Shown here piece after piece: positions 12,955-42,393 of a DNA stretch of 42,393 nucleotides. Within the stretch, counting starts at the first letter, position 1, and each line of letters opens with the position of its first letter. The notes under the pieces are model-generated. The model was not told the origin of the DNA, did not search any database, and was given only the letters and a program-made list of their open reading frames with translations. Both the position numbers and the translations under genes were made by a program. Source of the stretch: Leptolyngbyaceae cyanobacterium (GTDB lineage Bacteria; Cyanobacteriota; Cyanobacteriia; Phormidesmidales; Phormidesmidaceae). Location of the stretch: NCBI GenBank assembly GCA_965263355.1, contig CBDHHL010000008.1, positions 1 through 42,393 of the forward strand. Direction: 5' to 3'.

Positions 12955-13584
12955 CTAATTCCCGAAAAATCCTGCGTTACTAGCATCAAACGCAAAAATA
13001 GGACTTGCCCTGATAGACTCAGCGACAGTCTCTTTATTTCTCATGACTCTATCGAAGCCAAAGGCCACATACCCAAATATATCGCCATTCTGAGCCAATA
13101 TAGGACAGGAGATAGTTAGCTGAATATTATTAGGCTCAAGTTGCTGTCTCAATAGGCCTGCTGGGAGATCCTGAGTAGGCTTAACCCAGCACTGGCCTAA
13201 CTTATGGTAATCGAGCTGTTCCAGATAGATATCCTCTTGCTGGATATCTAACCACCCGTAGGTAGCCGATACCGGAACCCCGATCCGTGCGATCGCAAAA
13301 CTAAAGCGCCGACGTTGGTCCTCGTCATATAGGAATGACCCGACCCATTGAGCGTCCAAACGATCCCCCATAGAGGTTATTACATCCTCAATTGATTGCT
13401 GATAAATAAGCCCTCTAGCGATGCCCTGCGCTATAGAACCAGGCGTCCTGATCTGAAGACAAACATCACTAAACTGAGTGTGCAAAAACCAGAACGATAT
13501 AAGACCAAAGCTTAGCCCTAGCAGGAGGCTAAGCAGCATCCGGCCTATCGAGCTACGGAAGAACGGAAATAGAGATCTAATCAT
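12955..13584 (-). CDS. Single-TM protein with GAF-like C-terminal domain; T4 T-like holin candidate
   Basis: N-terminal TM (aa ~16-34); ISCPILAQNGDIFGYVAFGF GAF-type hairpin; 209 aa. Confidence 0.6.
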   Translation of the reverse strand: MIRSLFPFFRSSIGRMLLSLLLGLSFGLISFWFLHTQFSDVCLQIRTPGSIAQGIARGLIYQQSIEDVITSMGDRLDAQWVGSFLYDEDQRRRFSFAIARIGVPVSATYGWLDIQQEDIYLEQLDYHKLGQCWVKPTQDLPAGLLRQQLEPNNIQLTISCPILAQNGDIFGYVAFGFDRVMRNKETVAESIRASPIFAFDASNAGFFGN

Positions 13585-14350: not shown

Positions 14351-15315
14351 CAAATTAAACCATTTTCAGTCGCCCACGGAACTAAGTCTTGATGCGTCCC
14401 TGACGTTACAGTATTAACATAACTCATCCACTGAGCCATGATTCCTAAGAATGCAGTCGTCGAGCCGCCTGGTGGTACGGCTTCTGATGGCAATGATCCG
14501 GATTCCCAAGCGACAAGGTTTGAATAGATGTTTCGGATGGATTCCGCTAATGCTTTTTGATCAGCGTTTGCAGTGGGAGATTGTGAGATCGCATCCCAAT
14601 AATTTATTTCTTCTTGGATAGGAGAAGCCCCGACATAATCGCCACTATCAATGATCGCCTGGTTAGTGACTGCTGCACTGGTTAGCTTGTAAGTGATAGC
14701 CTCTGTTGGCTCAGTCGTAGGACTGGGGATTACTACAGGTTCGGATATTGCGGCTATTTCTTCGATTTTATATTTAAAGCAGCCAGCAATCTTGAACTGC
14801 CAATCTAGCCCCGCAAACCCTTCCAGCTCAACAGTTAAGGCTGTAATGTCCTGTGTCTCGATCGGATCAAACCCTTCCCCCATAGAGATTGTATCGTCAG
14901 ACCTTAGGACGGGCACTGATGGGTTTCGATAGACGGGAGTTATTCCGATGCCAGTCGCCCAGCCTTTCAGCTCATTGTCTGCTGAGATAGTTAGTTTATA
15001 AAACTTGGCTGAGTCCCAACCTCTATGATTAAGTCTTACAGGGGTTTCACTCTCGGTGCAGATCTTAAAAAAACTGCCATCCTCTGTAACTTCAACATTA
15101 GCTGGGTGATTCGGGCTGATGGTGCCAGGTCCAAAGCCCCAGTCAAAATCCCAAAAGTCTCCAGCAATGATGTTTTGCTGCACATCCGTAGCAGACGGGT
15201 TTGAACCGCCAAACAATAATGGAGCAAAAGTTGATTCCTCAGTGGCTGTCGGCGATCCCGTATTAGGGGCCACTGAGGCTATTAGTTTCCCCAGGTAACC
15301 AGCTTTACACGCCAA
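14350..15315 (-). CDS. Hypothetical structural/fibre-associated protein
   Basis: 321-aa ORF overlapping its neighbours in the late operon. Confidence 0.55.
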   Translation of the reverse strand: MACKAGYLGKLIASVAPNTGSPTATEESTFAPLLFGGSNPSATDVQQNIIAGDFWDFDWGFGPGTISPNHPANVEVTEDGSFFKICTESETPVRLNHRGWDSAKFYKLTISADNELKGWATGIGITPVYRNPSVPVLRSDDTISMGEGFDPIETQDITALTVELEGFAGLDWQFKIAGCFKYKIEEIAAISEPVVIPSPTTEPTEAITYKLTSAAVTNQAIIDSGDYVGASPIQEEINYWDAISQSPTANADQKALAESIRNIYSNLVAWESGSLPSEAVPPGGSTTAFLGIMAQWMSYVNTVTSGTHQDLVPWATENGLI

Positions 15316-21635: not shown

Positions 21636-23194
21636 TACTGCACAACCTCTCTTGCGACAATCTCACCAGTTGCCGCCGATTCTGCGATTACTCGAATCTC
21701 CCCGTTAAAATCATCCGGTTCAAATCGGCCAGCCGGAATTGTGTAAACGTAATTTCCCCCGGTCGTTTGGGCAGCAGTAGAGCCGTATTGGACGTAAACG
21801 GTTTGATTCGTGCTATTTCGAATGACCACGTTTACTCTACTTGGATTCGCGGGCACTAACTGTTGATCAACATTGAGATTGGCACTAAGTACAACCGGAA
21901 CCGATGCACTTTGTTGAACTGCCGTGTTAGCCCCCGTACCACCCGTCAAGAACCAGGATAAATCAGGCTTATTCCTAGCAATCCTAGGGCCAGGGAACGC
22001 CCCTTGATATTGACGGATCGTCATTCGCGAGCGACTAAATGCTGTAGCTGCACCCGCAATATCTTGGTTGCCAAATACTCGCAAGGCCTCCAATGCACTA
22101 CGGCTAATCGTTATCGTGGTTCCATTGCTTGCCCATTGCCCTAACTCTGATGCGATCGTGGGGTTCGGGACGGGGCCATCGGTCGTGTAAATTAACAGCC
22201 ATTCATTTTCTGTCGCGACTGCCGTCGTCTCACTCTCAGTGTTGATTTGAGCAAGCCTATCTTGAGCGATTTCAAACGTGATGGTCGCGAACGTCGTCAC
22301 AGGCGATACGGTAAACCCAGTTGCGCCCGTAATAAGCCCGCCTGCAATTGGCCTGTCCGCTGTGGCCACTGTGTCGCCTGTGACCGGGATTTCGAGAACA
22401 GATTCAGAAACTAACAGTATCGGGTCGTTAGTGCTCGAAGCTCCAACTACTGCCGTAACGATCGCGTTCCCGTTAGCGGTCCCAATCGTAATTCCGTTCT
22501 CATCGGAAAACGCGTCATTGGCCGTGGGATAAACAAGGTCATCGCGACCAATGACCGCAAAGCCACTGTTCCCCGTGCTGGTGGTACCACCGGCCCCATC
22601 ACTAATATCGTAAGTGACAGATTCAAGCGAGCCTAAACCGCCAGTGGAAGAGCTTGCTGTCAGCTGGGCTTCTGTCGGCCCAGTACCAATCGTTACAGTT
22701 GCCCCTGATGGGATATTAGCTAGGGTCGTTCCATCGGCTGATAGGATGCCGAACAGCACAGGCCCAGCCCCATTAATTTGATAAGGCGTTGCTGACGGTG
22801 ATGGGGCCAACTGGTCTATGTCATCACTCGCCAAGGTAAACCTTGGCGTGTTTGCATCGACAAGGCCAGAACTTGTGGCAACTGTTGCAGGAAAATTTGT
22901 AACCTGAGTTGCCCCAGCTATTCCACCAACCGGTTCAACGTTTGTTGGGGCAGCCGCCAAAACTGCATTAGTCGTTGTGTTAAGCCATTCTGGTGGGTCT
23001 GTTCCAATTTGCCTAAGAACCAAAACGTCGCCAGCGTTATAACCAACTCCGCCACCTGCGGCCCCCTGAACAGTGGCGTAAATATTTGTAGGTACACCAC
23101 TAGTCCCAACAACTAAAAGATTGCCGCCCGCGTCAGCAAGTAAAGGGATCGGCTCTCCGTTAGGGTCAAGCCCGTAGATCAGGCGGCTGCTCAT
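21635..23194 (-). CDS. Putative head decoration/fibre protein
   Basis: 519 aa, Gly/Thr/Ala-rich; C-terminal LVPANPSRVNVVIRNS...YVQYG beta-sandwich motif seen in phage structural proteins. Confidence 0.55.
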   Translation of the reverse strand: MSSRLIYGLDPNGEPIPLLADAGGNLLVVGTSGVPTNIYATVQGAAGGGVGYNAGDVLVLRQIGTDPPEWLNTTTNAVLAAAPTNVEPVGGIAGATQVTNFPATVATSSGLVDANTPRFTLASDDIDQLAPSPSATPYQINGAGPVLFGILSADGTTLANIPSGATVTIGTGPTEAQLTASSSTGGLGSLESVTYDISDGAGGTTSTGNSGFAVIGRDDLVYPTANDAFSDENGITIGTANGNAIVTAVVGASSTNDPILLVSESVLEIPVTGDTVATADRPIAGGLITGATGFTVSPVTTFATITFEIAQDRLAQINTESETTAVATENEWLLIYTTDGPVPNPTIASELGQWASNGTTITISRSALEALRVFGNQDIAGAATAFSRSRMTIRQYQGAFPGPRIARNKPDLSWFLTGGTGANTAVQQSASVPVVLSANLNVDQQLVPANPSRVNVVIRNSTNQTVYVQYGSTAAQTTGGNYVYTIPAGRFEPDDFNGEIRVIAESAATGEIVAREVVQ

Positions 23195-23514
23195 ACTGTA
23201 ATCCTATGAACGATCTCATTCCAAGCGGTCGTATTCATCTCTGCTATTTCTTGAGCAGACTCAACGGTTTCAATTGGCCTAGCATTAATCAGCTTTTGAG
23301 CGGTAGCAGGGCCAACCCCAGGCAGGGCGATAAGCTCTGATGCAGACGCCTGATTGAGGTTGATGACATCAGGTGCTTCAGACTCGCCAAGGATCGCGAT
23401 AGCGCTCAGCTCTAAAAGTGAACCAACCGAATCGCTAGGGATATCCAACTCAGCCCCGACAGGGTAAAGCTTCCCCTTTACTATCAGCTCAGAAAGGCAT
23501 TTAACTTTTGTCAT
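23191..23514 (-). CDS. Small protein with ComEA-like helix-hairpin-helix DNA-binding domain
   Basis: INLNQASASELIALPGVGPATAQKLINARP; directly after the capsid gene. Confidence 0.85.
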   Translation of the reverse strand: MTKVKCLSELIVKGKLYPVGAELDIPSDSVGSLLELSAIAILGESEAPDVINLNQASASELIALPGVGPATAQKLINARPIETVESAQEIAEMNTTAWNEIVHRITV

Positions 23515-24593
23515 TACAAAGACCCCCGACCTAGCTGTAAGATCCCGTCTGGCAAACTCTGATCAACCGAGTAGTCAGCCAGTGGATCAAATATATTTTG
23601 GATTAAGGCACCGCAATATTTTGTGGTGATCAGCTCGCGGCGAGTATTGGCAACACGCAGCCAACGACCGCCCCGAATACCTAGGAAAGGATCTTCGGAG
23701 ATCTCCCCCGCAATGTCTGAGCCAGAATCAGTATTTGGATAGGTTGCAGCTGCACAAAAAGTAGGCATGACCGTATTGACCAGCGAACTAGTACTTGGCT
23801 CTAGCCTGACCAGGGCAGCTGAATTCCGCCATAGTCGACGTACGCTAAAGTTTTGTGTGGCTGCCTCAGGATCGACGCGAGCCTCGAAGTTAACATCGGT
23901 TTTTGCTTTTCCGATAACAACCTCAACTTCAAGAATCTCTGATAGTTCGTCGATGGTCAGCCGTCCCGCCTGAGCTGCGTTGCTTTGGCGAGCGCCGCGA
24001 ACAGATTCAACCAGGTTTGGATGAACGCGTAATTTGTTCGCGCCATGCTGGCTGATAACCATATGAGTCGCTTCAACCAACATCTGTTCTTTGATGTCAT
24101 CAATGAGTTCTTTGGGTCTAGATGCAGGGTTATCCCATTGATCCGCTGCCGCCGCGATCGCAATCACCCGACCAAAGTTGTTAGGATCAGAATATATATC
24201 GGCGACTCGCTTCTCCTCTCGAAGCCGCATCAAGTGACCAGCACCGCGAGTTGCAGTCGATTCTAGGTTGACCACCGAGTAACCAGCACGGCGCTGTTGT
24301 GCCGCGACTTCCTCGTCGTAGTTAGCGATAGGTACATCAAAGCCATAGTCTTTGGTGAAGCTTGCCCGTTGCTCAGAGCTAAACTGCAAGGCTGGGGGCC
24401 TATCGTATGGGCCAACTTCGTTTTCCGGCGCTCGCATCAATTGAGAGGCATCGCGCCAGTCGTATCTGAAAGTCATTGCGGGAACAGTGATTTCAGGCAT
24501 GACGATCCGACTAATAAAATCGGATTCTGACTGCATATATTCCTGCAATTCGCCCGTATGAACGGGCGACACGGTGAAATTCATTTGCGGCAT
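23514..24593 (-). CDS. Major capsid protein
   Basis: 359 aa downstream of protease and cement genes; EKRVAD...QWDNPASRP...LRVHP pattern. Confidence 0.85.
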   Translation of the reverse strand: MPQMNFTVSPVHTGELQEYMQSESDFISRIVMPEITVPAMTFRYDWRDASQLMRAPENEVGPYDRPPALQFSSEQRASFTKDYGFDVPIANYDEEVAAQQRRAGYSVVNLESTATRGAGHLMRLREEKRVADIYSDPNNFGRVIAIAAAADQWDNPASRPKELIDDIKEQMLVEATHMVISQHGANKLRVHPNLVESVRGARQSNAAQAGRLTIDELSEILEVEVVIGKAKTDVNFEARVDPEAATQNFSVRRLWRNSAALVRLEPSTSSLVNTVMPTFCAAATYPNTDSGSDIAGEISEDPFLGIRGGRWLRVANTRRELITTKYCGALIQNIFDPLADYSVDQSLPDGILQLGRGSL

Positions 24594-25027: not shown

Positions 25028-26097
25028 TATGCAGACCTCTCGCTAGCGACTTGACGGATAGCTTCAGAAAAAGAGATTCCCTTTTCTTTCGCACGGTTGC
25101 GGGCTTCTATGTTCAGCGCAGCTTGCGAGAACTCAGCATCACTTGGAGCAGCCGGGGCATTGTCAGGGGAAGCAAACTCAGTTCCCAGCTCGACAGTCTT
25201 AGGGAGTGAAGCGATAAACGCCTTAAAGGCTGCTTTGGTGCCGACCGTTTTCTGGTCATTTCCGTACGAAAACTGGGCTTCGTCTGTAGGGAGGTTGGCG
25301 TATACGGCACTAGCCAACTCAGAATCAAAAACTTTCCCTTGGTTCAACTGAGCCTCAGTAAATGCCGAGAATTCAGCTAAGTCAGCTGCTAACTCCCTAG
25401 CCTTGATTTCAGCTTCCTTGGCCGCGAGACTAGTTTCCCTCTCGGTCATTGCGGCTTCTTTAGCCGCAATTTCTGCTTCGTTACGTGTCATATTTTCCTC
25501 ACTACTAAATGTTGGCGTGCTTTCATCGTCAAGTATTCCAACTAAGTTGCCTAAGTCGTCAATCAGATAGTTTGGAATAGCATTGTCAACTGCCTCAGCC
25601 GTCATCAACGAGCTGGACAGCATTAGATCTCGAATCCCCCTGAGCGCCATAGAGACTTGTCTGCCTAGAAAGTAGACAGCTTCAGCCTCCCTACTGGCAC
25701 CGAAGTCCATAGAGTAAACGTGTTCGCTGTCGCTGAGTGCTGAGAACTCGGCTGGTTCTAGATCGACCGCCCCTTGTGGGACTGCGGCTAAGTGCTTGAG
25801 CATCCATCCATTAGAACCCCTGGCTAGCTTGACGCTCAATTGCCAGGGCTTTGAGCCCTGAAATCGACTAGAAAAATCAGCAGCCACGTCTTTTGGATAC
25901 GCCAGCAGCCGATCGCCGAAGCGATGGATCCTGTCGAGAACACCCTGGACAGGGCCAGACTCGTCGTGATGGACGTACAGCGGGACGTTATCAGCTCCAT
26001 TCGTAACCAGTTGGTCAAGGTCCGCTCGCGAAAACTCACGCGTTACGCCTCGACTGTCTGTCCAGGTTCCGGCTTTGAAAATTTCAATCAGCGCCAT
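25027..26097 (-). CDS. Mu gpI-like prohead protease/scaffold
   Basis: IEIFKAGTWTDSRG...FSRADLDQL...PLYVHH...LSV...LKHLAAV; C-terminal coiled-coil scaffold with repeated EF[SA]. Confidence 0.85.
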   Translation of the reverse strand: MALIEIFKAGTWTDSRGVTREFSRADLDQLVTNGADNVPLYVHHDESGPVQGVLDRIHRFGDRLLAYPKDVAADFSSRFQGSKPWQLSVKLARGSNGWMLKHLAAVPQGAVDLEPAEFSALSDSEHVYSMDFGASREAEAVYFLGRQVSMALRGIRDLMLSSSLMTAEAVDNAIPNYLIDDLGNLVGILDDESTPTFSSEENMTRNEAEIAAKEAAMTERETSLAAKEAEIKARELAADLAEFSAFTEAQLNQGKVFDSELASAVYANLPTDEAQFSYGNDQKTVGTKAAFKAFIASLPKTVELGTEFASPDNAPAAPSDAEFSQAALNIEARNRAKEKGISFSEAIRQVASERSA

Positions 26098-26214
26098 TAT
26101 GAGGGAGATCGCATCAGAGCCAGTGTAATTCCCCTAAGCCGCCGTTGCAATAACCACGGCATTGCTGTTACACTTTTGTCAACTATTCCAATCGACTATA
26201 CAAAGCACGCGAAG

Positions 26215-26238
26215 GGGCGTTCCAGCACGCCCTTTTTT
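26215..26238 (+). terminator. Terminator-like hairpin
   Basis: GGGCGT-tccagc-ACGCCC followed by T6. Confidence 0.6.
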
Positions 26239-26242
26239 ATTG

Positions 26243-26289
26243 AAAAGTTTTGCAGGGTAAATCGACGCAACCTACCCTGCAAAACTTTT
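26243..26289. repeat. Dispersed palindrome copy 2 (17-bp arms)
   Basis: AAAAGTTTTGCAGGGTA-aatcgacgcaacc-TACCCTGCAAAACTTTT. Confidence 0.95.
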
Positions 26290-26340
26290 TCAGGGGGATC
26301 GGTATACTATCGAGATAGCGAGTGTCAATCCTTTAGTGTC

Positions 26341-26898
26341 GTGTCTAGGAAAAAGAAGCCAAATTTAGCCAAAGAGGTCAGGCCGGACGGATTTGGTAAG
26401 CTGTCTGACAAACAGATACGTGCCGGTCAATTATTAAATGCCGGATTAAGCCAAGTAGCAATCGCTAAAGAAATTGACGTGTCGACAAGATCGCTCACTA
26501 GATGGCTAAATACGTCAGAACTTTTTAAGAAATATCTAGGGCATCTTAGAAAAGAACGAGCCGATCAGATTCAGCGAATTATTGAAGCCAACCGTGAGAC
26601 CATGGCTGCAAACATGCAACTTGCGATCGCAACTTGTTTTGAGATTATGGGCTCCGGTACACCCATAAAGGACGATTACCAAAATACGGTTATTGATTCT
26701 CAGACTGGGCAGCCACTAATTAGCTATCGCTACTCAACTCATGAACGGCTCAGAGCTGCGGCACTGGTCTTTAGTTCAGCAATCAAAATGTTGCCGAACA
26801 CAGAGCCCCCTGACACAATTGAAGCTGAAGTTAAGGATGCTGACTTTTCCGAAGAACGACTTAAGGAAGTGCGAGAGAATGTTTACGGGATCTATTGA
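26341..26898 (+). CDS. terS: Terminase small subunit (HTH)
   Basis: Likely GTG start at 26341; LSDKQIRAGQLLNAGLSQVAIAKEIDVSTRSLTRW HTH; ends VRENVYGIY and overlaps terL. Confidence 0.75.
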   Translation: MSRKKKPNLAKEVRPDGFGKLSDKQIRAGQLLNAGLSQVAIAKEIDVSTRSLTRWLNTSELFKKYLGHLRKERADQIQRIIEANRETMAANMQLAIATCFEIMGSGTPIKDDYQNTVIDSQTGQPLISYRYSTHERLRAAALVFSSAIKMLPNTEPPDTIEAEVKDADFSEERLKEVRENVYGIY

Positions 26899-28253
26899 TG
26901 GCTGCTGTTCAATTACTGCCGTATCAGATCGAGTCATTCAAGGATCGCTCAAGATTAAAGTTACTCATGTGGAGTCGCGGCGCTCGCAAGACTTTTACTT
27001 GCACTCTAGAGATTGTAGATAGCATCTTTTCTCAGGAGGCAGCGGGCCAGCGCGACGAATGGACAATCCTTAGCGCTGGTGACCGCCAAGCGATTGAGGC
27101 AATCCAACACGCTAAGCGTCACTGTGTTGCGTATTTGATGAATGCGGTGAACGTGATCAAAGGAGAGTTCGTTAGTGAAGACGGAAAGCGCCGCTACACA
27201 ACTCATGAGATTAGATTTCCAAAAGGCTCAGTGATTCGCTCGGTGCCTGCAAACCCAGATACTGCTCGCGGGTATACAACAAATTTTTATTTAGATGAAT
27301 TTTCAATTCATGAAAAGCCAAACGAGATCTGGCGAGCGGTCTATCCCTCGTTGAGAGGCAAAAAACGGATGATCATAAGCTCAACGCCTAAAGGTGGGCG
27401 TGCGAGTAAGTTCTATCAGATTGTCCACGATGAAACTTCGTTATGGTCAAGGCATGAGATTGATATCCACGAAGCCGTACGCCAGGGATTGCCAGTCGAT
27501 ATCGAAGAAGAAAAAGCAGCGATGGGCGATCCTGACGGCTGGGCTCAAGAATACGAACTCAAGTGGATTGATGAAGCCTCAGTCTGGCTGCCCTACGAAT
27601 TGATTCAACGCTGCGAACATGAAAACGCCGATCGCCCTGAGCTATACAGCAATGGAGCAACGTTCATCGGAAATGACATTGGGCGACGAAAAGATTTGTG
27701 GGTAGCGTGGGTGATTGAGCGAGTCGGGGACGTGCTCTGGACTCGCGAGATTAGCGTTTTGCGTGGGGCAAGCTTCCATGAACAAGATGAAGAAATGGAC
27801 CGTCTCATCCGAAGATACCACCCTAGTCGAATAGCTATGGACCAGACTGGTATCGGTGAGAAACCAGTTGAAGATATGCAGCGCCGCTACGGTGAAGCGA
27901 TGGTTGAAGGCGTCGTTTTCTCGAATAATAGTAAATACGTCTTGGCAACAACTTTGAAACAGGCGTTTGAAAATTTTAGGTGGAGAATCCCGATCAACAA
28001 GGAAGTCAGGGATGACTTACACAAGCTAAAGAGAACGACAACGCTCAGTGGCGCTCCAAAGTTTGACGCTGATGCCGACGAGCTTGGTCATGCAGATCGA
28101 GCATGGGCAGGAGCACTCGCACTTTACGCCTCAGGTATGGGGGGGAAAATCGAAGCTCGACGGCGTAATAGCTGGTCCCATACCCCAGACTACACAGTCA
28201 AACGCCCTGATCGCAGGTATGCCCGCATGGGTGGATCGCGATCTCGACCTTAG
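26895..28253 (+). CDS. terL: Terminase large subunit (Mu gp28-like)
   Basis: LLPYQ, WSRGARKT (Walker A variant), YLDEF (Walker B), SSTPKG, GNDIGRRKD, MDQTGIG, GHADRAWA. Confidence 0.95.
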   Translation: MMAAVQLLPYQIESFKDRSRLKLLMWSRGARKTFTCTLEIVDSIFSQEAAGQRDEWTILSAGDRQAIEAIQHAKRHCVAYLMNAVNVIKGEFVSEDGKRRYTTHEIRFPKGSVIRSVPANPDTARGYTTNFYLDEFSIHEKPNEIWRAVYPSLRGKKRMIISSTPKGGRASKFYQIVHDETSLWSRHEIDIHEAVRQGLPVDIEEEKAAMGDPDGWAQEYELKWIDEASVWLPYELIQRCEHENADRPELYSNGATFIGNDIGRRKDLWVAWVIERVGDVLWTREISVLRGASFHEQDEEMDRLIRRYHPSRIAMDQTGIGEKPVEDMQRRYGEAMVEGVVFSNNSKYVLATTLKQAFENFRWRIPINKEVRDDLHKLKRTTTLSGAPKFDADADELGHADRAWAGALALYASGMGGKIEARRRNSWSHTPDYTVKRPDRRYARMGGSRSRP

Positions 28254-29171: not shown

Positions 29172-29233
29172 AGAAAACCCCGTGAGGCAGTCTGAGAGGA
29201 CAATGGCCCTCACGGGGTTTTCTTTTGCTTTTT
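29172..29233 (+). terminator. 16-bp perfect stem followed by T-rich tract
   Basis: AGAAAACCCCGTGAGG...CCTCACGGGGTTTTCT then TTTGCTTTTT. Confidence 0.7.
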
Positions 29234-29244
29234 GCAACAGTATT

Positions 29245-29283
29245 ATTTTGCAGGGCAGGTTGCGTCGATTTACCCTGCAAAAT
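29245..29283. repeat. Dispersed palindrome copy 3 (spacer inverted relative to copy 2)
   Basis: ATTTTGCAGGGCA-ggttgcgtcgatt-TACCCTGCAAAAT; spacer is the exact reverse complement of the copy 2 spacer. Confidence 0.92.
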
Positions 29284-30458: not shown

Positions 30459-31612
30459 GCTGCCACCCCTGCAATGCCCTTCAGCCAGTCGTGTAGCGAC
30501 TTCCATTCCAGATCACTAAGCTCGGCAATCGATCGTTCACCAAGACTCACCAAAGGGCAGCAATCGACCGCTGCACTCAGCCTTGCGTATCCCCTCGATC
30601 GGGACAATTCGGGGAGTGATCGCTTAACTTCTTCAATGCCTAGTACCTCCGTACTAGTCGCCGGAACACTTTCAACCATGGGCTGATTCAGGCTTTCTTG
30701 CCTGACTCGTTCGTGCTGTTCAGCCTGGATTCTTAGCTCTACAGACTTCTGCCACTCAGACTGAATCGTGTCAAATCGCAGCTCTGATTTAAATAAATCG
30801 AACTTATTCTTCATGCCTTTGACGTACTTTCCAGCGTCATGGGGAGTGATCACTTTCTGCTTGCTGTACGGTTCAACCGTTGGCAGATAGACCCTGATTA
30901 AATGCTCGATCAGCTGTGCATTTGGACGATCGACCGTTCCCCATGGAAAGGAATGCATTGTCAACGCAGTTGAGTCTAAGAACTCCCCTGTCACGAAGTG
31001 AGAAAAGCTAATCTCATTTTGAGAGTGTTCCTCTCTAATCTGAGTAATCTCTGGAGTAATCTCTGAAGTAATCTCTGTATAAGGTAGGTTAACTTCTTTA
31101 ACTTCTGTAAGTGAACTTTCTTCACTTACAGAAGTGGACTTTTTTAACTTACAGAAGTGACCTTTGTTAACCTCTGTAAGTGAACTTTCTTCACTTACAG
31201 TGAAAAGCTTGGCAGTAGCGGCTTCCAGCGTCTGATGATTCCTAAAGTAAAAGGTTTGCCCTGTCTTTTTGTTGTGGAAACTACAATAGAAAGCTTGAGA
31301 CCCATCGGCCCGCTCAAAGGACTGATCGCCAGCACGTCGGTAAGCGGTCAGTGACTTGTGAGCAATGCCGAGCTTAGAAAACGCCTTAGAAAATTCGTGC
31401 TTGCTAAACCCCAGCTCTTCAGTCCAGCTGTCACCGGGACTATAGGCTTCATGGCTGCACTTCTCGGTAAATTTGTAGAAACCGTCTGGATACTTGGCAA
31501 ACCAGTACTCTAGCTGCACTAGCAGGATCGTAGCCGTGACACTTCCGGCCAGCGGTCTGAGCTTGGAATAGTACGGAGTCGGGTTAGCAAACGCTGAGAG
31601 TAGGTTAATCAT
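30455..31612 (-). CDS. Replication initiator protein (N-terminal wHTH, lambda O-like organisation)
   Basis: LAGSVTATILLVQLEYW...FYKF...SWTEELGFS; central low-complexity linker coincides with DNA iterons; YTEITSEIT motif. Confidence 0.75.
   Translation of the reverse strand: MINLLSAFANPTPYYSKLRPLAGSVTATILLVQLEYWFAKYPDGFYKFTEKCSHEAYSPGDSWTEELGFSKHEFSKAFSKLGIAHKSLTAYRRAGDQSFERADGSQAFYCSFHNKKTGQTFYFRNHQTLEAATAKLFTVSEESSLTEVNKGHFCKLKKSTSVSEESSLTEVKEVNLPYTEITSEITPEITQIREEHSQNEISFSHFVTGEFLDSTALTMHSFPWGTVDRPNAQLIEHLIRVYLPTVEPYSKQKVITPHDAGKYVKGMKNKFDLFKSELRFDTIQSEWQKSVELRIQAEQHERVRQESLNQPMVESVPATSTEVLGIEEVKRSLPELSRSRGYARLSAAVDCCPLVSLGERSIAELSDLEWKSLHDWLKGIAGVAA
31043..31200. repeat. Putative replication origin inside rep
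   Basis: 3x AGTAATCTCTG at 12-bp period (31043-31077); two CTGTAAGTGAA-ctttc-TTCACTTACAG palindromes (31101-31135, 31174-31200) and a half-site. Confidence 0.75.
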
Positions 31613-33496: not shown

Positions 33497-33526
33497 GAAA
33501 AGCGATCGAAACCGATCGCTTTTTTT
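33497..33526 (+). terminator. Rho-independent terminator
   Basis: AAAAGCGATCG-aaac-CGATCGCTTTTTTT. Confidence 0.8.
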
Positions 33527-33530
33527 CTTG

Positions 33531-33578
33531 GAAAGTTTTGCAGGGTAATTTAATACCGCGTTACCCTGCAAAACTTTC
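33531..33578. repeat. Dispersed palindrome copy 4 (18-bp arms, divergent spacer)
   Basis: GAAAGTTTTGCAGGGTAA-tttaataccgcg-TTACCCTGCAAAACTTTC. Confidence 0.93.
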
Positions 33579-34029: not shown

Positions 34030-34120
34030 CATCGGTCACGATCGGTGACCGGGTCACCATCGGTCACGATCGGTCATCATCGGTCACGATCGGTCATCAT
34101 CGGTCATCATCGGTCATCAT
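34030..34120 (+). repeat. 10-bp tandem array (C/G)ATCGGTCA(C/T), about 9 units
   Basis: catcggtcac gatcggtgac cgggtcac catcggtcac gatcggtcat catcggtcac gatcggtcat catcggtcat catcggtcat. Confidence 0.92.
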
Positions 34121-34406
34121 GACTAAAACCACTGTTGTATATAGCCTTGAGGGGTTTAGAGACCAATTCAGGCAGCGGCTTAACGAGCGACTAGGGTCTA
34201 GTAGCCTATCTGCGAAATTTAGCGATAGTACGTTTTACCGCTGGAGAAAGGAGTTAAATATTCAGCCGCCTTATACGGCTGAAGACGGAACCCTTTTGAT
34301 CAAGTACGTCTGCCACCTAAGAGCTGGTTGTAGTTCCGCCAGGGCAAAGCAAAACGCCAAAAGTGAATTGTTCAAAATGAAAAACAGGAGAAAACCTAAT
34401 GACTGA
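34119..34406 (+). CDS. Small HTH-like protein
   Basis: Likely start ATG 34119 at the end of the array; FSDSTFYRWRKELNI. Confidence 0.6.
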   Translation: MTKTTVVYSLEGFRDQFRQRLNERLGSSSLSAKFSDSTFYRWRKELNIQPPYTAEDGTLLIKYVCHLRAGCSSARAKQNAKSELFKMKNRRKPND

Positions 34407-35816: not shown

Positions 35817-36633
35817 TCTAGGGGAATGCCCGATGGTATTGGCTCGCGTTACTGATGACCCCATGCATATTGGTGTTGTTGGCGGCATTGGAGTTTTAAT
35901 GCTCCTGAGCCTACCTGGTTGGTCCCTGATTCCTGCTGGTTTAGCCCTTTACGCCGTCGCTAATGATGTCATTTGGGCGCTTACCGACGACACAGACAGT
36001 GACGAAAAACCTGCAATAGATACTGAGGCTACTGAGGTAAAAGACCCGATCGCAGCGCTTAAAGAACGAAGTCCGGATAATTGGGTTGACAACTCTGGTT
36101 TACCTGAAATGTGGAAGCCCAGAGTTGAACCAGTTGAACCAGTGAGCACTGGTTTTAAGCGAGCTGCTGACGTGGTCGCTGACAGCTCGCCAGCTGAGTT
36201 GTTAGCTCTCCTCGGTGAGCGTGCGCCTCAGTGGTTGCAGTCAGCAGCGATCGCTCAGGAGATCGCGGCTGCGGAACCTGCACTTGAACCGGAACCACCT
36301 GCTGTCAATACGCCTGAAATCCCTTTTGAACCAATGGTTCCAGGTGGTTCTGGTTCTGGTTCTGGTTCGGTTCATGGTTCTGGTTCTGGTTCGGTTCATG
36401 GTTCGGATGCCGTTCTAGCTGGGCTCATGCAAGCGGTAGCAGCTGGCCCGCGAGTCGTGCCGGTCATGGGTGTGAGGGGAAAAACCTACAATATTGTCAA
36501 AACAGCACTTCAGTTAGAAAAGTCTCAGACTTGGATAATTGAGAATATCTTTGGAGTCAAGAAAGGTGGCTCGACCAAGTACAAGTCATCAGTTAGCTAT
36601 ATTAGGTGGGTGAAAGAGAATGGCTTGGGTTAA
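35779..36633 (+). CDS. Membrane protein with long linker and C-terminal HTH-like motif
   Basis: Two N-terminal TMs; Pro/Glu and GS linker; SQTWIIENIFGVKKGGSTKY. Confidence 0.65.
   Translation: MSEIVSTKQPQSNLGECPMVLARVTDDPMHIGVVGGIGVLMLLSLPGWSLIPAGLALYAVANDVIWALTDDTDSDEKPAIDTEATEVKDPIAALKERSPDNWVDNSGLPEMWKPRVEPVEPVSTGFKRAADVVADSSPAELLALLGERAPQWLQSAAIAQEIAAAEPALEPEPPAVNTPEIPFEPMVPGGSGSGSGSVHGSGSGSVHGSDAVLAGLMQAVAAGPRVVPVMGVRGKTYNIVKTALQLEKSQTWIIENIFGVKKGGSTKYKSSVSYIRWVKENGLG
36127..36404. repeat. Polarised GAACC/GGTTC pentamer array
   Basis: GAACC at 36127, 36136, 36274, 36286, 36292, 36328; then 11 GGTTC copies in 36336-36404. Confidence 0.75.
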
Positions 36634-36895
36634 AGGCTCAATTACACTAGCGGCGGCACATCGCATTTTCCCTCAGTTTGACATTACACAGATAGTGATA
36701 GGCAATAAGAGCGTCTACAGGGCAAGCATTGCTAATCAGCTCGTCTTCAATGATTCCTTAACTAGTCTTTGTGAGGGACTAGAAAGAATGCTATTCCACT
36801 GCATCGATCCGGCTAAGTTTACCGAGTTTCTTGAGAGTCGCCCTAAGCCGGACACTCCAGACACGGTAATCAGTTTGTTGACCAGAGATCTCTGA
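36620..36895 (+). CDS. Hypothetical protein
   Basis: 91 aa, last gene of the rightward operon, convergent with gpG. Confidence 0.5.
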   Translation: MAWVKGSITLAAAHRIFPQFDITQIVIGNKSVYRASIANQLVFNDSLTSLCEGLERMLFHCIDPAKFTEFLESRPKPDTPDTVISLLTRDL

Positions 36896-37307
36896 TCACT
36901 GCGAGTAATTCTGCTCTATCCTGTGCAGTGATTCCCAAAAAACGCCGTGATGGTTGTCGACCGTCGCGGCTTCCCTTTTGGAATCTAGCCGCATAAGGAC
37001 GGTTAGAGCCAACCAATAAGTAAGTAGGCCTCGCCACATATGTAATGCCGTCCCGCAAGGCCAGCGTGTATTTCCCCACTCCTCGATCTCGACCTTCCGC
37101 AGCCTTGCGGCGTTTCCACGCAGCACTAATAGGAGCCCATCGCTGACCGCCCGGTGATGTTTCGGAGTCAAAATAACTGCGTGTCCGCAGTAGCATGTAT
37201 TCCCCAAAGTCCTCAAATGCTGGCCGCAGGTCCCCGATCGCCTCTGTCGTATTTCTAAGCGCTCGCTGAACGTCGGCAGTTGTTATCTGGATTTCAATGC
37301 TAGCCAC
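36870..37307 (-). CDS. Mu gpG-like virion morphogenesis protein
   Basis: DLRPAFEDFGE...FDSETSPGGQRWAP...VGSNRPYAA.FQ.G...PSRRFLGI. Confidence 0.9.
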   Translation of the reverse strand: MASIEIQITTADVQRALRNTTEAIGDLRPAFEDFGEYMLLRTRSYFDSETSPGGQRWAPISAAWKRRKAAEGRDRGVGKYTLALRDGITYVARPTYLLVGSNRPYAARFQKGSRDGRQPSRRFLGITAQDRAELLAVIRDLWSTN

Positions 37308-37369
37308 ACGTCGATAGGTTTGTTTTAGCCCATGGTATAACTTAGGGTAACTCTCCTATTTCTTTAACC

Positions 37370-37582
37370 ATGGACGAACTTCTTAACCACTTTGATCAAA
37401 TCTTTCAACTTGAACTGGTAGGCATCATCACCGCTGTGGTTGCTAACCTAATCATTTACCCGTGGTATGAATCCGCAACCGGTCAACGGATTAAAGGACT
37501 CGCTAAGGATTTGAAGGATAAGTCAGCAAGTGATGAAGCGATGATCCTAACAAACGCAATCAAAGACAGTCTCGCCAAGTAG
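37370..37582 (+). CDS. Small single-TM protein (moron-like)
   Basis: Opposite strand within the late operon; TGGTATAAC upstream; own terminator; TM LVGIITAVVANLIIYPW. Confidence 0.65.
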   Translation: MDELLNHFDQIFQLELVGIITAVVANLIIYPWYESATGQRIKGLAKDLKDKSASDEAMILTNAIKDSLAK

Positions 37583-37637
37583 CCGGAAAGCCGTCTTTAG
37601 TCCTGTAGTAATAACTAGATTTGAAAAGCTTTAAGCG

Positions 37638-37671
37638 CTCGGCGACATGTGGGAACATCGCCGAGTTTTTT
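37638..37671 (+). terminator. Rho-independent terminator
   Basis: CTCGGCGA...TCGCCGAG followed by T6. Confidence 0.75.
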
Positions 37672-37680
37672 ATTGGAAAG

Positions 37681-37717
37681 TTTTGCAGGGTAAGTTGCGT
37701 TGAATTACCCTGCAAAA
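37681..37717. repeat. Dispersed palindrome copy 5, overlapping the MuF stop codon
   Basis: TTTTGCAGGGTA-agttgcgttgaat-TACCCTGCAAAA. Confidence 0.92.
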
Positions 37718-38406
37718 TTACTCGACTCCTCTGCAACTGCGATCGCAATATCAGGCTGAAGCCTCCCTAGTAATGATGCCTGCAGGTTTGAGCGTTCGCT
37801 GTCCCCCAGGGAACCTAGCTGCTGAGTCCAGCCAGGTTCCCTGGGGACTGGCAGTGGTTCACTTAGTGTTAGCCCTAGGCGTTCCATGTCCCGTTGAGAA
37901 AGGCTGAAGTACACGCAACGGCAGCCGTACCCGTGGGGCAGCCGAGTTGGTCTCTCATCAGTTCGGTAGACCTTGCCATCGTTTGCCAAATGAGTAGGCC
38001 TAGGGTCGTCGCTGCCCCCATGTCGCCACATCACGAATGGTCGACGAGATTTTACTCGTTGGATCTGCTCCTCCCGACCATTCCCGTAAGCTGAGCGGAG
38101 ATTAGTTTCCCAGATCAAGTTTGATCGCCAGTCGCGATTACCGGTGTAGCTCCAACCACGCTTAGCAACAATCTGGTCAAAATTCGCCTGGAATTCTTTT
38201 AAAGTAATTCCCTGCTCGATCGCTGCGTCCACTTCCTTTCTAATGTCGCTCAGTAGTGCCCCCTTAGCCCCAGCGACCATAAACACGGCCAGCTGTTCAG
38301 CCCCCGTAATGTCTCGCCATGAGTCCGTATCAATGTTCAGTTTGCTTGAGAAGAATTGAATTGCTTCGGCAAAAGGGAGTTGAGACCAACGAAAAATTGT
38401 GCGCAT
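37705..38406 (-). CDS. MuF/gp30 head morphogenesis protein (short form)
   Basis: LPFAEAIQFF..K...FMVAG...WETNLRSAY..GR...PRPTH...DG...PHGYGCRC. Confidence 0.93.
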   Translation of the reverse strand: MRTIFRWSQLPFAEAIQFFSSKLNIDTDSWRDITGAEQLAVFMVAGAKGALLSDIRKEVDAAIEQGITLKEFQANFDQIVAKRGWSYTGNRDWRSNLIWETNLRSAYGNGREEQIQRVKSRRPFVMWRHGGSDDPRPTHLANDGKVYRTDERPTRLPHGYGCRCVYFSLSQRDMERLGLTLSEPLPVPREPGWTQQLGSLGDSERSNLQASLLGRLQPDIAIAVAEESSNFAG

Positions 38407-38407
38407 T

Positions 38408-38560
38408 TTAATTACCTATTTCATCAAGCGCATCTTGCACCTCTCTGGTCGCATCCCTCGTGTTACTAGCACCTCCGTCGACGCTAGTGACCGTATGGAT
38501 CGCTAGCGCAATGGCGACCGCTGCTATTCCTGCTAGGGAGACGTTAATCAGTGTTTTCAT
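38408..38560 (-). CDS. 50-aa membrane peptide homologous to a tape-measure segment (absent from the ORF track)
   Basis: MKTLINVSLAGIAAVAIALAIHTVTSVDGGASNTRDATREVQDALDEIGN; fills the gap between neighbours; GAGGA upstream. Confidence 0.75.
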   Translation of the reverse strand: MKTLINVSLAGIAAVAIALAIHTVTSVDGGASNTRDATREVQDALDEIGN

Positions 38561-39053
38561 TGGGTTCCTCTAGATCGTCAATAGTTCCGTCTTCAGATAA
38601 ATCTTCCATTGCCCCAGCAATAGACGTTGCAACGATCGCATCACTGGCCAAACGGCGTAGGCTTTCACCATCAAGATTTGGATACAGATTCAGCAGGCCT
38701 TCGGCGAATTCGGCCAAGTCACTTACCCCATCAAGGCTATCCCTGATCTGGCCAACCCATCCGTCAATCAATGTTCCGGCTTGATTGCGGAATTGTTCTG
38801 ACCAGATAGCGACGGTGTCTGCTTCGGCAAACTCTGACTCAGTGTCAACGGAGTCGGGGTTAACCAGCTTGAATGACACTTGTGAGTCTGTGTACTGAAA
38901 AGCGATTACACGGTTTTCATCGGTTGCGATCGCAACTATCGCCCCATCGTCCTCGACCCTACCAGACTGAACTGAATCGACACCGTCTGTGTAAGTTTCA
39001 TTGATAAGATCGATTAATGTTGGATATTGTTCTTTCGGGATTTCAGTAGGCAT
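38544..39053 (-). CDS. Acidic protein whose C-half resembles the C-terminus of Mu-type portals
   Basis: EFAEAD...LIDGWVGQIRDSLDGVSDLAEFAEGLLNLYPNLD...LASDAIVATSIAG. Confidence 0.65.
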   Translation of the reverse strand: MPTEIPKEQYPTLIDLINETYTDGVDSVQSGRVEDDGAIVAIATDENRVIAFQYTDSQVSFKLVNPDSVDTESEFAEADTVAIWSEQFRNQAGTLIDGWVGQIRDSLDGVSDLAEFAEGLLNLYPNLDGESLRRLASDAIVATSIAGAMEDLSEDGTIDDLEEPNENTD

Positions 39054-39079
39054 GAACTTATGGTGAGCTTGGTAATAGT

Positions 39080-39298
39080 TTACGCTTCTGAGCTTTCCTT
39101 GAGCTTGACTCCTCTTGCCCCCAGAGAAACCGCGTAGCTCTCCTCCAACGACAGCCCTCCCTCCGCCTGGACTAGGCGAAGTATCTTATCAGCTAAGTCC
39201 AGTAGGCGCGCTTTCCTGCCGTCGTCTTCTGGTAGTTTTTTAGCTGTCCCTACAATGCCATGACGCAACTGCATCCTTCTTAGATTAATCTCAGTCAT
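39080..39298 (-). CDS. Small protein coupled to the portal-kinase gene
   Basis: 72 aa, ATGA overlap with the portal stop. Confidence 0.6.
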   Translation of the reverse strand: MTEINLRRMQLRHGIVGTAKKLPEDDGRKARLLDLADKILRLVQAEGGLSLEESYAVSLGARGVKLKESSEA

Positions 39299-41673
39299 CT
39301 GTTGAACAATTCATTAAAGGGATCATCATCGTCGTCAAACAAGTCGTCGTAGTCACTTAGGTCAAGTCCGCCACTCGTCGGTATAAGACCACCTGTCGTT
39401 GTAATTGGCAGAGTACTCAATGTCGAGTTGACCTCCGTCCATAGCTGGCGTTCAGTCTCTTTGGCTTCCTCTTGCGTCATCCTTGGGATATTCATCCTGG
39501 CATATTTATTGATGACCGGGTCTAGAGCGTCTTTTTCTGGCATTCCTCGCTCAATAAACTGGCCATTGGTCAGGACTTGAATGGATTCGGTTAGCTGATT
39601 TTTTGCTGTAATCTCCCCTACCTCGGCGTAGCCATAGTCAATTATCCTGACATCTCCAGCACTATTGATCATCACGTTTCCGTTGTGCATATCGCCATGA
39701 GTAACATTGGCCTCATGCATAGCTTGAACCTGAGCGAAAGTATTCGTGATTGTCGTTCGTTGTAACTCAGGATCGATAAAGACGTTTGAGTAGTCTTCAT
39801 ATCCGTCTAGATACTCCATTGCCATCTTGTCAACGCCCCTTTCATTGGATGACGTGGCGATAATCCTTGGACCAACACCAGCGTCACTCATTAGTTGCGA
39901 TGCTGAGATCTCGGCTTCCCCCATTTCAGCCCCAGGCACCATGTATTTAATTACAGCGCCGTCGCCTAAATAGACTTTCCCTTGAGCGCCCTGTCCAATA
40001 GGTGAACCCAACTCCGTCTCATCCTTGAACTCAAAGGCATCGCTAGGCTGCCCAGTCGTGGCCTGTGCCCCTACTGCCGCCCTTAGTTCCTCTGCCCGCC
40101 TTCGCTGTGCCTCGCTGGGGGTTTTTCTGCAGATTTTTAGAGCGCTAATGCAGGTGTTGCCACAGGAAACGCCCTTGACACAATTACGCTTTTTTCCGGC
40201 GAACTCTACCTCCGAAAATAGCCCCGAAACCTCGTCTAATTCCGGCAAGCTTTCCGGCGCGATCGGCTCAGGTTCTGGCTCATCTGTAACAGTCGGCTCT
40301 TCAATCGGCTCTTCAATAAGTCGTTCGGCTTGATCCTCGCTAACAGTCGGGACAGCCAGTACGACCAACTCGCGAGCGGCTTTAGTCGAGATAATGCCCT
40401 GAGATACTTGAGTGACAATGTCGACAATTGCCTGCACTTGCGCCCCGTTTAATCCGGTGGCTTCCCCGCTTTCAGGGGGAGCAAATCCATCGCCGTAAGT
40501 TGACTCAATGTATGCCTGAGTTGGGGGATAGCCCATTTCAGTAAGTACCCTATCCCGTTCAGACGTATCTTTAAGGTTGGCTGGTGGGCTTAGATCGCGG
40601 CTTATTTTTGGATAAGCTGCCCCAGGATAGTTCCAGTCGGTCAGCCACCTTGCCGGTCCTTTATTGAATGATTCGGAGATAGCGTCAGACAATGACTGAG
40701 CGATAGCTAGCTCAACATTTTCGTGAACTTCAGCCTGGGAACGACTTGAGCCGTCGTCTGTGGTCATCGTCTGACCTAAGATAACTTTTGATATTGCAGC
40801 GTTTTTATGGTCAATGTAGCTTTCGTAGCTAGCAGCTCCACTGCCGACCGCTTGGAGGAATTCAGCAGTCATCCAATGAGGGATCGCGATCCCGTCGTAA
40901 TCGCCTAGGTCAGCTGCGATCTGTGCCGACAAGTCCCGCTGTTCTGGCGTAGCTCCTTCCGGATAGCGAGTTAAACCCGTTGGCCTACCATACTTTTCTA
41001 AATATTTTGACCAGTACTTATCAGCAGCGCGTTTGAAGAATACTAGCCAGTACAAAAGCGATGCTGTGCCCTGGCCGTATGGATTGTCGTCGTCATGGCC
41101 ACCAAGATTCAAATACCAAAACTTTCTATCAGGCAGCTTGATTCCGTTGTAAGCATTTCCCCACGTCAGCAACCTTGGCTCTAGCTGGGGAGTGAACTTG
41201 AACCGTCTTCGATTGCGAACTTTGATAATGTCAATCTCGACGCGATCGCTCTCTCCACGCTTCCACATGAATTCCGCAAAACTGAAACCAAAAAGATCGC
41301 CGTACGCCATCTTTTCCGTAACTGTTCCAAATGCGTTTTTTTCTAGCTGACTCCGCAGTGACTTAGCTGCTTTCTGGTCAATCTTCCTCTCTCCACCTGG
41401 CTGGACACTTAACGGCGCTGCAGTGATCTTGTGGATTAATTGGTTATAGCTTGCTGCAACTTGATCATCCCTAGCGATAACCTCGAAAATCCTAAGGTTT
41501 TGGTGCCCTCGGTTGAGGATCGAGTATTCCTCTGCCCGGTTGAGCACAGGATCATTGAAGGGCAGTAACCCGGTCGTTGAGATATAGCCGCGAGTAATAT
41601 CTCTCGTCCCGCCAGACGGGGCATACTCACCACGGGGAGCACCTTTTTTTTGCATTACCCTAACTTCACTCAT
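39295..41673 (-). CDS. Mu gp29/DUF935 portal protein fused to a Cys4 motif and a protein-kinase-like domain
   Basis: Portal: NPYGQG...LYWLVFFKR...YLEKYGRP...ISKVILGQTMTT..GSSRSQAEVH; kinase: IGQGAQGKVY, VIK, MEYLDG, HGDMHNGN, IIDYG. Confidence 0.92.
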   Translation of the reverse strand: MSEVRVMQKKGAPRGEYAPSGGTRDITRGYISTTGLLPFNDPVLNRAEEYSILNRGHQNLRIFEVIARDDQVAASYNQLIHKITAAPLSVQPGGERKIDQKAAKSLRSQLEKNAFGTVTEKMAYGDLFGFSFAEFMWKRGESDRVEIDIIKVRNRRRFKFTPQLEPRLLTWGNAYNGIKLPDRKFWYLNLGGHDDDNPYGQGTASLLYWLVFFKRAADKYWSKYLEKYGRPTGLTRYPEGATPEQRDLSAQIAADLGDYDGIAIPHWMTAEFLQAVGSGAASYESYIDHKNAAISKVILGQTMTTDDGSSRSQAEVHENVELAIAQSLSDAISESFNKGPARWLTDWNYPGAAYPKISRDLSPPANLKDTSERDRVLTEMGYPPTQAYIESTYGDGFAPPESGEATGLNGAQVQAIVDIVTQVSQGIISTKAARELVVLAVPTVSEDQAERLIEEPIEEPTVTDEPEPEPIAPESLPELDEVSGLFSEVEFAGKKRNCVKGVSCGNTCISALKICRKTPSEAQRRRAEELRAAVGAQATTGQPSDAFEFKDETELGSPIGQGAQGKVYLGDGAVIKYMVPGAEMGEAEISASQLMSDAGVGPRIIATSSNERGVDKMAMEYLDGYEDYSNVFIDPELQRTTITNTFAQVQAMHEANVTHGDMHNGNVMINSAGDVRIIDYGYAEVGEITAKNQLTESIQVLTNGQFIERGMPEKDALDPVINKYARMNIPRMTQEEAKETERQLWTEVNSTLSTLPITTTGGLIPTSGGLDLSDYDDLFDDDDDPFNELFNR

Positions 41674-41700
41674 TGAACCCTTGCGATTGTTTCAGACAGT

Positions 41701-42393
41701 TTAATTGATCCGATGTATCTGACTGGCTAGATCATCCAATCTCTCAGATCCATCTACTTCCCAAACTCCAGAGTAAGTATGTTGTCCCTGGTGATCTCTA
41801 CTGGACTCTTCACATAGATTCCAAAGCCATAGGTCAACCCCGTGCGATTTGCATTTTGCGATAATTTCGAGGTACATCTGGCACTGAGCCTTGCGAATAA
41901 TTGGCAGGTCAATCGCTGAAAATGCCGACGTTTCAAAGGCGTTTTTAAGCCCCATTGCCTGAACTGCTCTCCAGAACGGAGGGAGACAGTTTAGTCTCGC
42001 AAGGGAGACTAAACCTATTGCGCTAACTTTCATGCACTGGACGGCTTCTGATTCGAGAGAGACCTCGGCTCTCTCGCGATAGAGCTTGGTATAGTCGGCC
42101 CCTGAAAAGCCCGTTAGCCCGCTCAACTCTGAGAGCCTTACTAAGATGCTGTCACGGTCCATCTGTTGCCTGATCTTGTATTCAGACGCCCATAGCTCTA
42201 AGTTGGGATATTTTGACTTGATATGCCAATAAAGATCGACTATTTGTGCCCAAAGCTCCCTATCCCCGCAAAGTATCAACTCACCGACTAGCGTGATCCG
42301 ACGAACGCCCCGACCAACGCAGTGATCGACGATGGGCTTAGCTAAGTCGATTAAGCGACCTTTCAGAGCTAGCGAATCTCGCCCCTTCAGCTC
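41701..42393 (-). CDS. 3' part of the junction-spanning GH10-like protein
   Basis: Frame stays open from 42279 up to the window end; ITLVGE, LWASEY, AFE, AQCQMYLEII..C...LWLWN echo GH10 barrel motifs. Confidence 0.7.
   Translation of the reverse strand, partial: ELKGRDSLALKGRLIDLAKPIVDHCVGRGVRRITLVGELILCGDRELWAQIVDLYWHIKSKYPNLELWASEYKIRQQMDRDSILVRLSELSGLTGFSGADYTKLYRERAEVSLESEAVQCMKVSAIGLVSLARLNCLPPFWRAVQAMGLKNAFETSAFSAIDLPIIRKAQCQMYLEIIAKCKSHGVDLWLWNLCEESSRDHQGQHTYSGVWEVDGSERLDDLASQIHRIN
42383..42393 (+). repeat. Terminal direct repeat (right copy)
   Basis: Identical to 1-11. Confidence 0.95.

Follow-up and report, generated by a model that had tools for sequence, protein, structure and literature searches.

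The window analysed here, a 42,393-nucleotide (nt) stretch of contig CBDHHL010000008.1 from a Leptolyngbyaceae cyanobacterium (assembly GCA_965263355.1), carries on its reverse strand a single open reading frame (ORF) of 792 amino acids (aa), in which a phage portal and a protein kinase lie in the same frame (39295-41673; Table 1). The Pfam family Portal_Mu (PF06074) matches aa 61-394 over profile positions 2-335 of 336 (E = 5e-85; 286 bits against a cut-off of 23.9), PHROG family phrog_113 matches the same core, and the relation to phage Mu is evident from the match to PDB 9khx (E = 2e-15). The Pfam family Pkinase matches aa 557-687 with 36 bits, above its cut-off of 31.7 (E = 6.6e-9). An original prediction, made from the letters alone, had described this uninterrupted frame together with its kinase and Cys4 motifs; frame and motifs are all in place, and the contigs of three sequencing runs (Logan contigs, not raw reads) show no stop or frameshift in the fusion. 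In runs X1 and X2, which are one sample and possibly the source of the window itself, positions 36500-42393 are assembled unbroken and identical to the window, and a contig of X3, a second sample of the same study, covers 38899-42393 with 2 substitutions, neither inside the fusion gene. Since the gene is unbroken in contigs of three runs, it is not an assembly slip, and the portal-kinase fusion is confirmed. That the fusion reflects misassembly, or a functionless accidental insertion in a decaying prophage, is already largely refuted and hardly credible: the long branch of the portal core, the scrambled order of head genes and a Cys4 junction broken in one locus from a metagenome-assembled genome (MAG; L034) would fit such debris, but the catalytic residues are kept as well as the frame, a Cys4-kinase is also fused to an unrelated portal (P0089), and the gene layout is repeated with other cargo in loci L021, L026, L042 and L110.

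The hallmarks of the kinase superfamily are complete in the cargo domain, comprising the Gly loop, the Lys, the alphaC Glu (aa 588, kept in the nearest homologue too), HxDxxxxN and DxG. The domain narrowly passes the Pfam cut-offs of Pkinase, ABC1 and WaaY, whereas no curated whole-protein cut-off is reached for Bud32, RIO, ABC1/UbiB, Kdo, PknB, Stk2 or PD-T4-6; the general kinase assignment of the original prediction thus stood in the hidden Markov model comparison, and none of the named families did. All 19 NCBIfam matches lie far under the cut-off, and PADLOC matches are confined to the catalytic stretch (best 35 bits). The kinase clade of polyvalent proteins has an insert between the catalytic His and Asp and has lost its whole C-terminal subdomain (PMC5512222), and it was rejected as a home for the window kinase, which has an uninterrupted H-G-D and keeps a C-terminal part made of helices. 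Two structure models were poor (predicted local distance difference test scores of 42.6 and 44.9); Foldseek with the second returned Src-family kinases (E = 2e-5, TM about 0.3), a result that points to a kinase fold only. In the ESM Atlas the cargo matches viral kinase clusters at 0.94-0.96. The substrate is more likely a protein than a small molecule. The closest kinase is that of P0089, where Cys4 and Pkinase follow a DUF1073 (Phage_portal_3) portal (37% identity over 326 columns, E = 8e-55), and in single-linkage clustering of cargos the window kinase joins P0089 only. A homologous-protein search returned no other close relative than the query itself among 5498 candidates, a second protein search none among 145 candidates, and scanning of contigs from viruses and metagenomes for the pattern none; a search restricted to proteins of 1421-4055 aa also found none, which says little. 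Among 401 sampled cyanobacterial genomes there were three weak kinase matches (best 4e-7), and a profile of the linker and Cys4 module matched in one of them, the centre genome.

Related portals hold other domains where the window holds its kinase. Among the best 80 of 226 portal loci from GTDB, eight are labelled Cyanobacteriota, of which five have a cargo extension, two are ordinary and one is ended by a contig edge; the five cargo-bearing loci comprise two that match the Cys4 pattern, one with a variant, one broken inside Cys4 and one without it. None of the other 72 loci has Cys4 in the portal. A cultured strain, Petrachloros mirabilis ULC683 (locus L032), also has a portal that bears cargo. 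With a profile built from two linker-plus-Cys4 sequences, 274 proteins among 1.84 billion were matched at E <= 1e-3. Among the 150 matches listed, a Mu-type core occurs with Cys4 in 26 and without the pattern in 6 (one of which has a Cys4 variant, counted later), Cys4 occurs without a Mu-type core in 25, and 93 have neither and are mostly helical-linker matches. Of those 25, five have a DUF1073 portal ahead of the Cys4 cargo, and lambda-family portals (PF05136) with Cys4 cargo were found at five loci. The resulting 42 portal-Cys4 proteins (32 Mu-type, 5 DUF1073 and 5 lambda-family, some fragments and near duplicates included) fall into 15 single-linkage cargo clusters, one of them chained via a multidomain protein, and six clusters span two portal families with up to 58% identity. 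A constant carrier with exchangeable C-terminal enzymes, as in polymorphic toxins, is thus present, and the survey of related portals that had been suggested with the original prediction did uncover alternative C-terminal domains. Pfam identifies ADP-ribosyltransferase (ART) cargo in P0002 (E = 7e-12) and L131 (E = 5e-13), and further DUF3626, ParB_N, DnaJ, InPase and LPD1; zincin, GNAT-like and JAB-like cargos are labels from motif reading, not from Pfam. A quick tree of the portal cores, partial sequences included, has near-identical sisters that differ in cargo (P0037/L136 and P0012/P0023), and the cargo-free portal L005 sits among cargo-bearing ones. By these comparisons the slot on the portal is variable, and the kinase is one of its alleles. 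A role in head assembly or DNA packaging, with the kinase phosphorylating phage proteins and remaining in the structure, would suit an enzyme fused to a structural protein, and animal-virus virion kinases have such roles (PMC10665884), but close relatives manage without a kinase or hold unrelated enzymes in the slot, and we regard this role as very improbable. The helical linker ahead of the slot matches many proteins other than Mu-type portals, sometimes in multiple copies, and no Pfam family covers it.

It is also evident that the slot has displaced a part of the portal. In ordinary Mu-type relatives a helical tail domain closes the portal ORF of about 500 aa, and xF[AS][ED] stands directly before that domain in 41 of 59 distinct portals. 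In the window the tail domain does not follow F[AS][ED] in the portal's own ORF but lies in a separate gene, a 169-aa ORF (38544-39053, reverse strand) that matches the end of the phrog_113 portal profile; the order is FSE (aa 486-488), EFAG, Cys4, kinase, a 72-aa ORF, a leader of about 70 aa, EFAE and tail domain. Neither this split nor the 72-aa ORF over the kinase stop was part of the original prediction. A cassette of Cys4, variable enzyme, small ORF and leader is thus placed at F[AS][ED] and pushes the tail domain into a gene of its own. The leader is closest to that of L112, a DUF1073 phage locus (57%; DNA 67% over 156 nt), whereas the tail domain and MuF are nearest to the Mu-type locus L042, so the block from Cys4 to leader looks to have been exchanged as a unit. 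Two other loci have a single ORF for portal, tail domain and MuF (L078:5953-8166 and L107:2988-5354), a fusion that hints at a joint function of tail domain and MuF.

The 72-aa ORF sits where an immunity gene would, and is a candidate for that role by position only. Comparison of 14 small ORFs behind cargo gave two homologous pairs, each behind the same cargo type (L042/L034, E = 9e-11; L026/L005, E = 6e-10). The portal could thus carry a MuF-like polymorphic toxin that poisons non-immune recipients while the 72-aa protein shields lysogens. Such a pair would fit the small ORF that is coupled to the stop of the cargo both here and in most relatives inspected, the recurrence of homologous small ORFs behind homologous cargo, the presence of ART cargo, a known toxin class, and a layout like that of MuF toxins (PMC5576092). 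We nevertheless consider it quite unlikely, as the 72-aa ORF has no homologue, matching pairs are only two among the 14, several cargos (ParB_N, DnaJ, InPase and LPD1) are polyvalent-protein domains and not toxins, and no integrase or transposase was recognised by Pfam or PHROG among the ORFs scanned, which were not every ORF of the window.

The motif at the cassette border shows a marked bias in its distribution. The 46 protease/scaffold ORFs together contain 171 copies of F[AS][ED], compared with 23.3 in shuffles (maximum 36), and the 59 portal linkers contain 45, where 3.6 are expected; in the 59 portal cores it is depleted (1 against 16.5 expected). Because it is enriched in the parts that are removed and avoided in the part that stays, F[AS][ED] is likely the site of the head maturation protease. 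In the window, EF[ASK] occurs 17 times in 13,358 residues, 5 of them inside the 356-aa protease ORF. Within 22 residues before Cys4, F[ASGKR] is present in 26 of 27 Mu-type and 0 of 5 DUF1073 portals, and RxD in 1 of 27 and 5 of 5, respectively, with both patterns chosen after inspection of the data and the sequences being related; the motif ahead of Cys4 thus appears to follow head type. The EFK between Cys4 and kinase is not conserved in the nearest homologue. In the lambda-portal loci L113, L115, L118, L127 and L133, Cys4 is mostly preceded by R-A-K/R, possibly a third head-specific cut motif. In phage Mu the portal gp29 forms a 12-mer, and the virion structure lacks the final 124 residues of this protein, a loss ascribed to protease I; the available text of that paper gives no cut site (PMC11915804).

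Kinases of this type are also known from cyanophages. The cargo matches 21 of 50,697 phage records, and the best match, Synechococcus phage S-CBWM1, takes in the Cys4 module. S-CBWM1 has four Cys4 ORFs, namely gp106 and the RIO-, ChoK- and APH-like kinases, and all three kinases begin with the Cys4 module. Cyanophage virion kinases share 25-33% identity with the window kinase (E = 5e-16 to 4e-9), and the ORF14 kinase of S-CREM2 matches it at E = 4e-10. Virions of S-CBWM1 are reported to contain the RIO-, ChoK- and APH-like kinases (cited second-hand by PMC10665884), kinases are cited in the same paper from S-CRM01 and S-TIM5 virions, and it reports 21 virion peptides for S-CREM2 ORF14. These reports bear on the alternative that the kinase acts late, in the producing cell, where an enzyme made equimolar with the portal would disarm portal-triggered host sensors and cleavage would merely clear the cargo. 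Avs and SpbK recognise portals (PMC13728456), an alternative of this sort has been raised for head-linked ARTs (PMC9503650), and polymorphism and cleavage fit it equally well; however, stand-alone kinases of this type, three of them with Cys4, are reported from purified virions, and a cut by the head protease leaves the released fragment inside the head. Late action therefore seems unlikely to us. Several minor features of these phages were noticed. The annotated starts of S-CBWM1 gp113 (L155:11995-12921) and gp161 (L167:2325-3203) miss about 20 N-terminal codons that hold Cys4. A conserved helical ORF of 64-78 aa follows the kinase gene in S-CBWM1, S-CREM2, S-N03 and S-B68 (L155:12918-13112, L160:10095-10331, L168:4547-4774 and L169:4475-4699), with one virion peptide for the S-CREM2 copy, and is a candidate kinase partner or inhibitor. 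In S-CREM2, L160:7795-10062, 10095-10331 and 15560-16804 are among several non-structural virion proteins sharing an N-terminal motif, which we take to resemble the T4 capsid-targeting sequence.

Portal C-termini face the head interior. We propose that the portal ring (12 copies in Mu) would load the prohead with as many as 12 units of Cys4 and kinase, where the phage protease would cut at F[AS][ED]/EF[AS], which it would also use on its own scaffold, and free a fragment of about 33 kDa. The basic Cys4 module would keep the freed fragment on the packaged DNA, the fragment would enter the next cell along with the genome, and there the kinase would phosphorylate host targets early, for takeover or anti-defence, possibly with toxicity to cells lacking the 72-aa protein. 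We consider this account, in which the kinase is loaded via the portal, cut free, held by DNA, injected and active early, to be probable, and within it packaging and cleavage of the cargo appear well supported by the comparative evidence. Loading into the head and clipping, as originally predicted, thus gain support from the polymorphic slot, the protease-like motif, Mu portal processing and the virion kinases; the finding extends beyond a single kinase. Several points weigh against the account. A single close kinase relative was found, and the window portal core forms a long branch (1.61) in the quick tree. The putative cut site is read from motif statistics on related, non-independent loci, the pattern before Cys4 having been chosen with the data in view; the protease ORF of the window has only 1 F[AS][ED] (and 6 [ED]F[AS]), and the portal core contains one F[AS][ED], at aa 132. 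The virion evidence for the S-CBWM1 kinases is second-hand, PMC10665884 itself gives a caution on co-purification, and the Cys4 module has no match in S-CREM2 and S-TIM5, whose kinases are reported from virions. Cys4 is also found in signal-peptide-like proteins outside head modules, sometimes repeated (L022-L025, P0043 and P0110), and with these two observations it is neither a specific nor a necessary packaging tag. The 72-aa ORF has no homologue in Pfam, PHROG, NCBIfam, PADLOC or the relatives' loci and no usable ESM Atlas match, and its membership in the small-ORF family behind cyanophage kinases was rejected (-0.4 bits; 1198 of 2000 shuffles scored as high).

A broader proposal can be made only tentatively. 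A plug-in cassette bounded by Cys4 and leader may move among Mu-type, DUF1073 and lambda-type heads and be joined to the portal of each, always behind the protease site of the head itself (F[AS][ED] or EF[AK] in Mu-type, RxD in DUF1073 and a third motif in lambda-type heads). The portal would then be a 12-copy loader, Cys4 a tag for injected effectors across cyanophages, and F[AS][ED] a so far unreported cut site of the Mu-type protease I in this group.

Enzymes on head proteins are not new, as portal or MuF fusions with PBECR, 2H, Nudix and ART domains are already in print (PMC5512222, PMC9503650). Like those polyvalent-protein fusions, the present system has an enzyme on a head protein that is proposed to be packaged and injected, and ART cargo occurs in this slot too; unlike them, it has a portal kinase, the Cys4 module, the protease motif and the split tail domain, none of which is described in the available text of these two papers, and neither is the Cys4/leader cassette. 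Polyvalent proteins are said to be scarce in cyanobacteria (PMC5512222), whereas five of the eight cyanobacterial loci above carry cargo. MuF polymorphic toxins (PMC5576092, PMC3482391) likewise have a constant head protein, a variable C-terminal enzyme, a small downstream ORF and a setting in a phage head module, but here the portal (12 copies in Mu) acts as carrier instead of MuF (1-2 copies in SPP1), and the MuF of the window is, as originally predicted, short, with 233 aa and no toxin extension. The word "kinase" has 0 occurrences in the MuF-toxin paper PMC5576092. The virion kinases of S-CBWM1, S-CREM2, S-TIM5 and S-CRM01 are of the same type, and the three of S-CBWM1 share the Cys4 start, but they are encoded by stand-alone genes of large myoviruses, without a portal partner or a swappable slot. 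With gp29 (gpH) and protease I of phage Mu, the window shares the portal family, and a C-terminal part of gp29 is lost in mature virions; Mu loses a tail of about 124 residues, whereas about 300 residues of cargo stand in its place here. We found no description of a portal-borne kinase, the Cys4/leader cassette or the F[AS][ED] site in the literature covered (including the available parts of PMC2628397, PMC13728456 and PMC7824862, but few subscription journals and not the supplementary files on architectures of PMC5512222). For enzymes delivered by phages as infection begins, the system points to a carrier, a border module and a predicted cut site, and it gives a possible route for unexplained kinases in cyanophage virion proteomes. 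Cys4 may serve as a sequence tag to mine further effectors, and a portal that accepts foreign cargo of about 300-600 residues lends itself to designs in which proteins are loaded into phage heads.

Table 1. Features of the portal-kinase locus and the surrounding head genes (positions in the window)
Feature	Positions	Strand	Evidence or remark
Portal-kinase fusion gene, 792 aa	39295..41673	-	ORF, Pfam, contigs
Mu-type portal core PF06074, aa 61-394	40492..41493	-	Pfam E = 5e-85; phrog_113
Helical linker module, about aa 404-460	40294..40464	-	also behind many unrelated portals
FSE / EFAG motif, putative head-protease site	40195..40221	-	position of F[AS][ED] before the tail domain in ordinary portals
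Cys4 module in basic stretch, constant head of cargo cassette	40129..40182	-	
EFK between Cys4 module and kinase, weak possible second cut site	40024..40032	-	
Kinase domain, non-RD, short helical C-lobe	39394..40005	-	
Gly loop	39979..39996	-	
VIK lysine	39946..39954	-	
HGDMHNGN	39676..39699	-	
DYG	39631..39639	-	
72-aa ORF overlapping kinase stop (ATGA), candidate immunity/partner protein by position only	39080..39298	-	
Leader domain, about 70 aa, N-terminal in 169-aa ORF, recurrent downstream cassette border	38844..39053	-	57% to L112, 43% to L042
EFAE motif between leader and tail domain	38823..38834	-	
Split-off C-terminal helical domain of Mu-type portal	38589..38807	-	phrog_113 positions 455-519, E = 2e-4; 48% to L042
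Short MuF, 233 aa, no cargo	37705..38406	-	Pfam/PHROG; 59% to L042
Terminase large subunit, away from portal, other strand	26895..28253	+	PHROG
Head maturation protease/scaffold, 356 aa	25027..26097	-	phrog_976, E = 4e-30; 5 of the window's 17 EF[ASK]
Major capsid protein	23514..24593	-	phrog_1005

Homologues of Mu gp36/gp37 are also encoded in the window. The best matches of both MuF and tail domain are at L042, a locus of a cyanobacterial MAG, and GCGATCGC, the cyanobacterial HIP1 motif, occurs 17 times in the window against 0.77 expected. We infer that the window belongs to a phage with a Mu-type head and a cyanobacterial host. The terminase genes (25924-28253, forward strand) lie 11 kb from the portal; relatives such as L021 have the order terL-portal-MuF-protease. 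A palindromic element of about 52 nt, with 13-nt arms and an 11-12-nt spacer, occurs four times (26233-26284, 29231-29282, 33521-33572 and 37666-37717), and similar copies are found on other contigs of the same runs; these may be recombination or operator sites, and the scrambled order of genes may be connected with them. A 50-aa ORF (38408-38560, reverse strand) that separates the 169-aa ORF from MuF has a hydrophobic N-terminal helix and no family match in Pfam or PHROG. According to Pfam, the window further encodes a Lipase_3 gene (8847-9716) adjoining an M15 peptidase, a PAS-domain protein (13577-14353), a SASA esterase on a 903-aa protein (17448-20159) and a helix-hairpin-helix protein (23191-23514) behind the capsid gene. 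Four repeats spaced 23 nt (31088-31200) lie iteron-like within the replication initiator gene, and a 10-nt tandem array occupies 34052-34121.

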